Below are positions 37,676 through 39,585 of a stretch of DNA of 60,970 nucleotides, one piece after another (the first letter of the stretch is position 1; each line of letters opens with the position of its first letter). Under the pieces are notes generated by a model. It was not told where the DNA came from. It did not search any database and saw only the letters and a list, made by a program, of their open reading frames with translations. Source of the stretch: an uncultured Gammaproteobacteria bacterium. Its GTDB lineage: Bacteria; Pseudomonadota; Gammaproteobacteria; GCA-001735895. The translations under genes and the position numbers were made by a program. The stretch spans positions 1 through 60,970 of the forward strand of contig CAXMRQ010000036.1 in NCBI GenBank assembly GCA_964196115.1, in the 5' to 3' direction.

Positions 37676-37856
37676 TATTTCGCTCGTCAGATTTAGACGT
37701 GAAGGTCCGTTCCTGGCCGATTGGAGAAGTTTTCGTTCATTAATTGAACGGCAGCTTACGAGAAAGCCGACCTTCAGATTCGGCTTGGTGACTTCGGCTC
37801 ATTGCCCTTAGCGGACATGCCCAGCCGTTTCATTAATTCTGATTATGGTAGCAATT

Positions 37857-37885
37857 TAGACTTTCCCAGTGGAGGGGTGTATAAA
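37857..37885 (+). promoter_or_regulatory. Putative sigma70 promoter for the riboswitch-lipoprotein transcript
   Basis: TAGACT-N17-TATAAA. Confidence 0.5.
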
Positions 37886-37902
37886 TGATTTGTAGTAAAA
37901 AA

Positions 37903-38005
37903 CAATAAAGCCAAACCCGACTAAAGTCGGGGACGGAAAGCCACGGGTCCTCGCTTCCTCCGAGAAGCCACGAAAGATTCCCCGAAGGACCCTAGCCAGG
38001 TAAAT
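37903..38005 (+). ncRNA. c-di-GMP-I (GEMM-I)-like riboswitch
   Basis: GCCAAA-CCCGAC-TAAA-GTCGGG-GACGGAAAGCCAC-GGGTCCT...AGGACCC-TAGCCAGGT; compensatory C21-G46 pair; 3' end atypical. Confidence 0.75.
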
Positions 38006-38016
38006 GAGGTGGCAAT

Positions 38017-39333
38017 GTGCGGTTTCTACCACTAATCCTAATTATTAGCATTACTGCCTGGCTTCTGGCTTGTGATCCCGTAATCGATGACGTGACCGTA
38101 GCAACTCCGCCGACCGTGCTGGATTTCGCGAGTATGCCCGCGACGGGTCAAACGCTATCCCCTGGGGGAGATTCGCGATTTGAGATCACCGGCCTTACAC
38201 CCGGGACCTTGTACAGCGTCTCCATTGCGGGAAACAATAACACCCAACTTAGTGTTTTTAACGCCAATTTTTCCATTTTTTTGTGCATCGGTTTCGCTTC
38301 CACCGGTAGCGGGAGTTGCAGCGCTTCTCCCTCGGGCACATCGTTATACTTGCGCGTGAGAGATAACTCCGGATTTGGCGATACCTTTACCCTCGACGTG
38401 ACCGTAGCAACTCCCACCGTGCTGGATTTCGCGAGTATGCCCGCGACGGGTCAAATGGTATCCCCCGCAGGAGATTCGCTATTTGAGATCACCGGCCTTA
38501 CACCCGGGACCTTGTACAGCGTCTCCATTGCGGGAAACAATAACACCCGACTTTTTGTTTTGGACGACCCCAATTTTTACATTGATTTGTGCATCGGTTT
38601 CGCTTACACCGGTAGCGGGAATTGCAGCGCTTCTCCCTCGGGCACATCACTATTCTTGCGCGTGAGAGATAACTCCGGATTGGGCGACACCTTCACCCTC
38701 GACATTATCGTAGCGACTCCGACCGTGCTGGACTTCGCGAGTATGCCCGCGACGGGACAAACGCTATCCCCTGGGGGAGAAGCGCTATATGAGATCACCG
38801 GCCTTACACCCGAAACCATATACAGCGCCTCCATTGCGGGAAACACAAGCACCCAACTTAGTGTTTTTAACGATCCCAATTTTTACATTGTTTTGTGCAT
38901 CGGTTTCGCTCCCGCCGGTAGCGGGACTTGCAGCGCCACTCCCTCGGGCACCTCGTTATACTTGCGCGTGAGAGATTACTCCGGAACGGGCGACACCTTC
39001 ACCCTCGACATTATCGTACCCACTCCGACCACTCTGGACTTCGCGAGTATGCCCGCGACGGGACAAACGCTATCCTCTGGGGGAGAAGCGCTATATGAGA
39101 TCACCGGCCTTACACCCGAAACCATATACAGCGTCTCCATTGCGGCACCCAATAACACCCAACTTAGTGTTTTTAACGATCCCAATTTTTCCATTTTTTT
39201 GTGCATCGGTTTCGGCTCCACCGGTAGCGGGAGTTGCAGCGCCACTCCCTCGGGCACATCACTATTCTTGCGCGTGAGCACCTCCGGAACGGGCGCCACC
39301 TTCTCCCTCGACGTGACCGTAGCGCCGCCCTAA
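38017..39333 (+). CDS. Lipoprotein with four ~101-aa beta-rich repeats, each with two Cys
   Basis: MRFLPLILIISITAWLLA-C lipobox; repeats PTVLDFASMPATGQ...CIGF..GSGxC..LYLRV..GDTFTLD; GAGGT RBS. Confidence 0.85.
   Translation: MRFLPLILIISITAWLLACDPVIDDVTVATPPTVLDFASMPATGQTLSPGGDSRFEITGLTPGTLYSVSIAGNNNTQLSVFNANFSIFLCIGFASTGSGSCSASPSGTSLYLRVRDNSGFGDTFTLDVTVATPTVLDFASMPATGQMVSPAGDSLFEITGLTPGTLYSVSIAGNNNTRLFVLDDPNFYIDLCIGFAYTGSGNCSASPSGTSLFLRVRDNSGLGDTFTLDIIVATPTVLDFASMPATGQTLSPGGEALYEITGLTPETIYSASIAGNTSTQLSVFNDPNFYIVLCIGFAPAGSGTCSATPSGTSLYLRVRDYSGTGDTFTLDIIVPTPTTLDFASMPATGQTLSSGGEALYEITGLTPETIYSVSIAAPNNTQLSVFNDPNFSIFLCIGFGSTGSGSCSATPSGTSLFLRVSTSGTGATFSLDVTVAPP
38110..39330 (+). repeat. Four coding tandem repeats (303, 306, 306, ~306 bp)
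   Basis: Units start at 38110, 38413, 38719 and 39025 with visibly high nucleotide identity. Confidence 0.9.
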
Positions 39334-39585
39334 ACTCCGATGGTGGGATGGCATTAAGGGACAGACCACGTTTTACAATTTTAGAATGAAATGTGCGCCA
39401 TGATCTGATGATTATGAGCGACCGTTATTGGCCGAAATACGAAGCTCGGTAAACGCGTTTCAGCGTCTCCTTTGGAGAAAGCTGACGCTCAAACTCGATG
39501 AATCAGCGGCAATAACCGACCGAATCTGTTGAAAAACTCGAATCGACGGTTAGAAAATAAATTCCTCCTGTCTCGATGTTGATTG

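Follow-up and report, generated by a model that had tools for sequence, protein, structure and literature searches.

The closest described relatives of the element reported here are the c-di-GMP-I riboswitches (GEMM-I, RF01051, typified by Vc2 of Vibrio cholerae), three-helix junctions in which a guanine, G20, follows the A-rich J1/2 strand and whose ligand pocket is built where P1, P2 and P3 meet. In Vc2, G20 reads one guanine of cyclic di-GMP (c-di-GMP), and an adenine at the same position is the signature of sensors for 3′,3′-cyclic GMP-AMP (3′,3′-cGAMP). The specificity of the fold can be retuned through its pocket: a G20A change leads to 3′,3′-cGAMP binding (PDB 4YB1), and a G20A/C92U mutant binds cyclic di-AMP (PDB 3MUV; PMC7288161). 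Here we analyse the leader of a surface-lipoprotein gene in a 60,970-nucleotide (nt) stretch of DNA from an uncultured gammaproteobacterium (contig CAXMRQ010000036.1, forward strand; the ‘window’, to whose full length all coordinates refer), a marine-sediment bacterium, for which a preliminary description had proposed a c-di-GMP-I variant with possibly altered specificity. Judging from its sequence, this leader, with the element studied lying within 37900–38020, descends from a c-di-GMP-I riboswitch of a subfamily that carries an insert in P3, and damage or weakening of an old sensor is a likelier account of it than the sensing of a new molecule. The features on which this rests are the following.

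37881–37886, forward strand: possible −10 element TATAAA with TG just 5′ of it, read from the letters
37903–37904, forward strand: 5′ strand of P1, CA where the subfamily consensus is CG (subfamily model alignment and family pair counts)
37910, forward strand: G20 equivalent, preceding CC-AAA (Rfam and subfamily model alignments)
37911–37936, forward strand: P2, with outer pairs C37911–G37936 and C37912–G37935 (letters and Rfam alignment)
37916–37931, forward strand: P2 hairpin, CCCGAC (37916–37921) pairing with GUCGGG (37926–37931) around the loop UAAA (37922–37925) (letters and Rfam alignment)
37937, forward strand: A47 equivalent, the intercalating adenine of J2/3, after GACGG (Rfam and subfamily model alignments)
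37939–37946, forward strand: 5′ strand of the lower P3 stem, AGCCACGG, identical to the subfamily consensus (subfamily alignment)
37945–37992, forward strand: subfamily-specific P3 insert of ~48 nt with a 7-base-pair (bp) stem, a CU-rich internal loop and a distal hairpin (consensus match)
37954–37961, forward strand: CUUCCUCC tract in the insert, resembling an anti-Shine–Dalgarno (anti-SD) sequence (letters of the window and of relatives)
37993–38006, forward strand: remnant of the aptamer 3′ strand, UAGCCAGGUAAAUG, without AGAUC (subfamily model alignment)
38006–38013, forward strand: Shine–Dalgarno (SD) region GAGGUGG(C), abutting the remnant strand (letters; GTG start at 38017)
38017–39333, forward strand: lipoprotein gene with a GTG start, 438 amino acids (aa), lipobox LLAC and four FN3-like repeats of ~105 aa (open reading frame and protein analysis)

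As an aptamer of the c-di-GMP-I type, the element lies far beyond chance. c-di-GMP-I is the only Rfam family found across the 61-kb window, with a match to RF01051 at 37900–37961 that scores 38.1 bits, the gathering score being 35 (E = 6.7e-4 over the full window length). A covariance model of the subfamily, R1, which we built from 32 gap-free members and in whose training alignment 94.8% of the assumed pairs are standard (a level reached by 0 of 500 shuffles), locates the element at 37900–38010 with 99.2 bits and an E value of ~1e-22. These two scores bear out the assignment made in the preliminary description of a c-di-GMP-I-type aptamer with a canonical 5′ half, and the letters agree with the details it had listed, namely G20, A47, the compensated C21–G46 pair, the UAAA loop of P2 and the 7-bp stem of P3. 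The covariance-model check that it had suggested gives a divided answer. RF01051 is barely passed, and its alignment of the 3′ half is spurious, as it gives P3 a 2-nt loop and takes UCC at 37956–37958 for ‘GCC’, so that the 38 bits come from the 5′ two-thirds alone. A relative without the 3′ strand, L112, reaches 39.0 bits on RF01051, again by way of this short alignment. On the c-di-GMP-I-GGC model (RF03167, clan CL00126), run with permissive settings, the window reaches 35.9 bits and misses the gathering score of 59, whereas intact-looking relatives score 59–72 bits.

With RF01051 and Vc2 the element shares the three-helix junction, G20 after the A-rich J1/2, A47, the P3 5′ strand, a position in the 5′ leader of a surface-protein gene and a P2 closed by a G–C pair, which is C–G in the window. 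It differs in having an A at the C92 position, in the loss of the P3-closing A–U pair, in a P1 of at most 2 bp that runs into the SD, in a P3 insert absent from Vc2 and in a P2 loop that is UAAA and not GNRA. RF03167 is the best-scoring model for the intact relatives and has the same P3 layout (CGGGUC ... GAU-CG-CCGGGCUGCC), but the relatives and the window carry A, not G, at position 47 and thus do not have GGC-type pockets. The 3′,3′-cGAMP riboswitch (GEMM-Ib) and the mutants G20A, C92U and G20A/C92U keep the same fold with pocket bases changed by clean swaps of single bases, which are recurrent (A20) or engineered, whereas the changed base of the window lies in a deleted, mutated and non-recurring strand. 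We classify the element as neither a GGC nor a UAU variant, nor as the A20 cGAMP type.

Its own subfamily became visible through two pattern scans, and all counts of relatives given here refer to the matches listed, as chosen by pattern. The first scan, through species genomes with a pattern describing the 5′ half with the C21–G46 variant, returned at least 125 c-di-GMP-I copies, mostly from Desulfobacterota, nearly all of which end in ...AGAUAGCCGGGUUGCC; a long P3 like that of the window occurs in three of them, L007 from a Poribacteria metagenome-assembled genome (MAG) and L051 and L112 from Gammaproteobacteria MAGs. The second, through metagenomes with the P3 insert as the pattern, returned at least 120 loci, and both scans together yielded at least 117 distinct full-length sequences, the window counted in. 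Their common layout is a canonical 5′ half, the insert GGGUCCUCGCUUCCUCCGAGAAGCC-N10-UCCCCGAAGGACCC and then the strand (C)AAGAUCGCCGGGCUGCC(G/A)A, whose positions are each ~78–99% conserved in 116 listed copies, most of them at 88% or more; in relatives from marine-sediment metagenomes, the near-invariant insert of ~48 nt is followed by (C)AAGAUCGCCGGGCUGCCGA. Four marine-sediment runs hold between 49 and 302 contigs per run that match the core, their word depths adding up to thousands, and these contigs cease to match the window at ~37990–37992, from where they read AAGATCGCCGGGCTGCC.

It is at this point that the window departs from its relatives. Outside the variable loop, it tracks the subfamily consensus through 37992; these ~97 nt span the near-invariant insert (GGGUCCUCGCUUCCUCCGAGAAGCC...CCCCGAAGGACCC), are ~88–90% identical to the nearest listed members and have their conserved positions nearly unchanged. 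Directly afterwards, where the subfamily has its 3′ strand, the window reads UAGCCAGGUAAAUGA, which corresponds to a 5-nt gap and six changes. Compared with copies such as L051 (CCCUAAGAUCGCCGGACUGCC), the gap is the exact loss of AGAUC; none of the 116 relatives listed has a gap in AAGAUC, and AAGAUCG, at least 95% conserved in the subfamily, is lost here. The six changes turn GGGCUGCC into AGGUAAAU, as substitutions within eight consecutive positions that all go towards A or U. In the remnant strand, GCCAGGU corresponds to GCCGGGC, A38002 takes the place of the P3-closing U, and GGUAAAU at 37999–38005 stands where GGCUGCC (GG(C/U)U(G/A)CC in the family) is expected, with A38004 opposite the model’s C92, the Watson–Crick partner of the second guanine. 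R1 puts its C92 column opposite A38004 independently and shows the 5-nt gap, in agreement with what had been read from the letters before. Among the 116 relatives listed, the closing-U column holds U 102 times, C 13 times and A once, and the C92 column C 109 times, U 6 times and A once. In the window, 11 nt separate the end of the aptamer from the start codon, compared to 19–159 nt (median 38) in 95 relatives.

A search for other A92 variants had been suggested in the preliminary description, which took the lack of homologues sharing the variant, together with no modulation by any ligand, as the mark of a decayed aptamer. The only listed relatives with A92 are the degenerate L219 and, by eye, L137 (64 and 73 bits on R1); among ~117 subfamily and ~125 other c-di-GMP-I sequences listed no intact copy has it, and the 3′ strand of the window as a whole has no second example among ~240 sequences. 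The homologues listed thus speak against a class that shares the variant, and the A92 of the window comes together with a deletion, the loss of the closing A–U pair and the loss of the linker. Across 100 listed loci, ~92 of ~107 complete copies reach 110 bits or more on R1, up to 142, and the 99.2 bits of the window belong to the lowest ~10% of the scores, among visibly damaged copies such as L216b, L198b, L199 and L137. Copies in which a 5′ or 3′ part is missing or scrambled make up roughly a tenth of those listed (L112, L134, L137, L235, L219, L121, L199 and L216:45-164), and some, for instance L121 and L199, still precede intact genes with an SD.

Since the strand does not recur among the ~240 listed sequences and damaged copies are common in the same samples, we lean, with modest confidence, towards a riboswitch eroded at its 3′ end that would now be poor at sensing c-di-GMP. 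Its first ~97 nt, from the 5′ strand of P1 through G20, P2, A47 and the P3 5′ strand to the insert, are intact. The 3′ strand, on which the closure of P3, the C92 base and P1 depend, is eroded: AGAUC is deleted, GGGCUGCC has become AGGUAAAU and the 19–159-nt linker has gone. The three lesions fall within the same 20 nt and remove a conserved bulge, the P3-closing pair together with C92, and the linker. With the 3′ strand eroded, the junction of the three helices, where the ligand pocket lies, would close only weakly, and most likely little or no c-di-GMP sensing would remain. Expression of the lipoprotein would then start from the riboswitch’s own promoter, with little or no control by the second messenger. 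In Vc2, substitutions at C92 (C92U) strongly reduce function in vivo (bioRxiv 10.1101/617340). An A/U-rich stretch now lies immediately 5′ of the SD, and six substitutions towards A or U at this place would suit selection for unregulated translation. As the element departs from its family at C92, in the subfamily 3′ strand and in the linker, we assign it to c-di-GMP-I (clan CL00126) by descent but refrain from calling it a functional member.

Several observations weigh against an eroded copy, and most of them favour instead a c-di-GMP riboswitch that still works at lower affinity, which we regard as a tentative alternative, distinctly less probable than erosion. In such a switch, G20 and A47 would hold the ligand, A92 would make a non-Watson–Crick contact and a 2-bp P1 would form on binding; as P1 and the 3′ strand of P3 lie right next to the SD, ligand binding would alter ribosome access, and could act either as an ON switch that frees GUGGC from GCCAC or as an OFF switch in which the aptamer packs against the SD. 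Four of the six changes recur in intact-looking relatives and are thus tolerated polymorphisms: the G-to-A change in GCCAGG is found in 6 listed subfamily copies and in L002 and L072, the C-to-U change that gives a G–U pair in 9 copies, G91-to-A in 19 and C93-to-U in 7, which leaves only the closing U-to-A and C92-to-A changes as exceptional. At the possible P1 pair adjoining position 92, both partners differ from the G–C of 92 of 117 listed sequences, being A37904–U38005, next to a possible C37903–G38006. Selection for a folded junction would be expected to leave such a double change; yet of nine listed relatives with an A at the 5′ partner of this pair, six retain the 3′ C, and the double change may also be due to chance. 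The lower P3 stem keeps five pairs (G40–U, C41–G, C42–G, G45–C and G46–C within 37940–37946), while the closing A37939–U has become A–A and C44 now faces an A, and relatives tolerate one or two such mismatches, as with GCCAAGCU in L160 and L220. The 5′ ~97 nt are free of decay, the allele is widespread, as three MAG contigs and the runs of at least three studies carry it without a difference, and lipoprotein genes are the usual regulon of the subfamily. Pocket mutants of Vc2 are also said, in work by Smith et al. of 2010 in Biochemistry, often to keep nanomolar affinity. What holds us back from a working switch is that the strand stands alone among the sequences listed, that AAGAUCG and the closing A–U pair are gone, that the score falls within the range of damaged copies, that the SD spacing is outside the range of the listed relatives and that the pairings through which the SD might be masked are at chance level. 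Because all copies of the leader compared are identical, they offer no covariation by which the odd strand could be tested.

The idea of a new specificity seems improbable to us. It would have a pocket of G20 and A92 prefer a dinucleotide whose second base pairs with adenine or stacks differently, for instance a uracil-containing cyclic dinucleotide, pGpG or pGpA. Pocket changes do retune this fold, as in G20A and G20A/C92U (PMC7288161), and the subfamily itself contains intact-looking copies with A20 (5 listed) or U92 (6 listed). A true class should recur, however, and the A92 companions listed are decayed copies only; moreover, the change accompanies a deletion and a lost P3-closing pair and is no clean pocket swap. 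Within the subfamily, U92 and C92 also interchange upstream of orthologous genes for small secreted proteins (L148 and L165 compared to L176 and L125), so that a change at position 92 need not mean a new ligand. Just as improbable, in our estimate, is a broader version in which the A92 strand is an adaptation: a compact cyclic-dinucleotide riboswitch whose P1 leads straight into the SD and whose G20/A47/A92 pocket takes something different from c-di-GMP, such as a linear breakdown product or a cyclic dinucleotide with uracil or adenine, and switches the translation of a repeat-variable surface lipoprotein. We consider very improbable, even beside these, that the contig wrongly joins two riboswitch copies across the invariant core of ~36 nt (37932–37968), so that the 5′ half and the odd 3′ strand would not belong to one molecule. 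Each sample contains hundreds of copies of this core. A contig of 602 nt from run X2 shares the unique 5′ flank of the window (37747–37895, no differences listed) and has seven differences confined to the core, but after covering 37747–37992 continues with AAGATCGCCGGCCTCCAGATC (also given as AAGATCGCCGGCCTCCAGATCTCTGATCCC; the haplotype is named by AAGATCGCCGGCCTCC), and the depth over 37994–38100 is zero in this run. Against a wrong join, two further MAG contigs, assembled separately and with the same gene order (HD-GYP, GGDEF-EAL, lipoprotein and sensor cyclase), have a letter-identical leader, and contigs from runs X1, X3, X4 and X8, representing at least three studies, connect the window-specific variable loop (37969–37980) with the odd strand and the gene start. 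The same allele in three MAG contigs and several runs is therefore real DNA. In addition, short reads of typical length would be longer than the invariant stretch, and the odd 3′ strand would stay real even in a chimera. It is the X2 contig, which presumably stems from a k=31 assembly, that is likelier to be the chimera; it may otherwise be a real second haplotype, perhaps produced by exchange between riboswitch copies.

Any control by the element would be translational, as the preliminary description had supposed, since the SD and the start codon follow directly. The complementarity on which it had based an ON switch is present in the letters: GCCAC (37940–37944) can pair with GUGGC (38009–38013), inside the SD GAGGUGG ahead of the GTG at 38017. 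A 5-bp match of this kind is expected by chance between an aptamer of ~100 nt and an SD region, and a hairpin that would enclose the ribosome-binding site (37994–38063) is unremarkable as well (z = −1.36, with 21 of 200 shuffles folding as well or better), so the switch and the alternative hairpin, both possible on paper, appear to be no better than chance predictions. As to transcription, a consensus promoter scan found no full sigma-70 match; if TATAAA at 37881–37886 is a −10 element, which is possible, the transcript would begin ~10 nt 5′ of the aptamer. A search for RNA over the leader listed four runs of unspecified kind, and 37997–38104 is covered by none of them.

Two other origins or closures of the 3′ part were considered and rejected. 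A second 3′ strand within the coding region, GCCUGGCUUCUG at 38056–38067, would restore C92 and P1; we regard it as a coincidence, as in the riboswitch-free homologue L242 these letters are the codons for Ala-Trp-Leu of the lipobox and the fold constrained to this closure is 19 kcal/mol worse than the free fold. That UAAAUGAGG is the ancestral leader of the lipoprotein gene (compare UAAAUGGAGG in L242), fused to a truncated aptamer, was dropped because 668 of 2,000 shuffles score equally.

The locus around the element appears to be in flux, as the riboswitch–lipoprotein unit is present in some strains and absent from others and homologous genes show no riboswitch in the upstream DNA compared. 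Besides the 602-nt contig, run X2 contains a contig in which 37720 is followed, after 26 other letters, by 39462, so that the whole unit is absent and which we read as a presence/absence polymorphism between strains. The 98–650 nt of upstream DNA compared for diverged lipoprotein homologues elsewhere (98 nt for one of them) contains no riboswitch. The unit is flanked by copies of a repeated hairpin element (37714–37800 and 39417–39520) with high metagenome depth. The lipoprotein differs in length between syntenic MAG contigs, with 438 aa and four repeats in the window compared to 337 aa in L246:2708-3721, which may reflect a difference in repeat number. Exact-protein look-ups for two small upstream open reading frames gave no match.

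The subfamily itself, whose members listed are L007, L051 and L121–L240 (for example L214:1294-1409 and L151:5607-5722), at several loci with two copies within a few kilobases, is not known to us from an earlier description. Nearly all genes downstream of 76 complete copies start with a signal peptide or a lipobox, as does that of the window, which indicates that the subfamily mostly precedes genes for secreted proteins and lipoproteins. Intact-looking copies score ~110–142 bits, compared to 99 bits for the window, from which AGAUC, the linker and the canonical GGGCUGCC are missing. The triplet G20/A47/C92 reads GAC in 99 listed relatives, GAU in 6 and AAC in 5; U92 occurs in L148, L165, L171, L218, L237 and L122, and the A20 copies include L125:2520-2635, L141, L224 and L168. 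P2 varies as a paired element, with its outer pair being G–C 59 times and C–G 55 times among the listed relatives and with two-sided changes at five of its six stem pairs; in the window, the hairpin is followed directly by GAC-GG, so that the conserved GAC before the closing pairs is present.

The 7-bp stem of the insert pairs GGGUCCU (37945–37951) with AGGACCC (37986–37992) without mismatch. A second type of insert has CCGCGACG...CGCCACG instead of CCGAGAAGCC...GACUCCCCG (L155:2522-2637, L152:1444-1559, L173:3890-4001, L198:95-200 and L186:534-649), and the covariation of GAG/CUC to GCG/CGC in its distal hairpin favours the 7-bp stem over a CUCG/CGAG hairpin. R1 was built with a P3 in the RF03167-like register and the CUCG/CGAG hairpin, and RNAalifold did not resolve P3 on the family alignment; this question of register touches the annotation of structure and leaves the comparison of scores unaffected. 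The insert also holds two CU-rich tracts, CUUCCUCC, which resembles the 3′ end of 16S rRNA, and (C/U)CCCC (37954–37961 and 37979–37983 in the window). Both rank among the duplex partners most often predicted for the SD regions that follow the aptamer in 95 relatives listed, which is suggestive of a built-in, portable anti-SD that these tracts may provide. Among the canonical Desulfobacterota leaders, L047, L052, L070, L114 and L036 contain the 3′ strand AGCCGGGUUGCC twice, 20–45 nt apart, which might allow two alternative aptamer closures.

Were the improbable reading of a new pocket true, A92 would add a new natural variant of specificity to a fold that has been studied well. As we weigh it, this leader illustrates that a riboswitch match just over its Rfam threshold can be a copy without the strand that reads the ligand, and that a single odd pocket base is no sign of a new specificity unless it recurs. 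The more useful outcome may be the by-product, an abundant c-di-GMP-I subfamily of marine sediments with a conserved structured P3 insert, anti-SD-like tracts and intact-looking A20 and U92 members, which would be a good system in which to follow how riboswitch copies spread, vary and decay.

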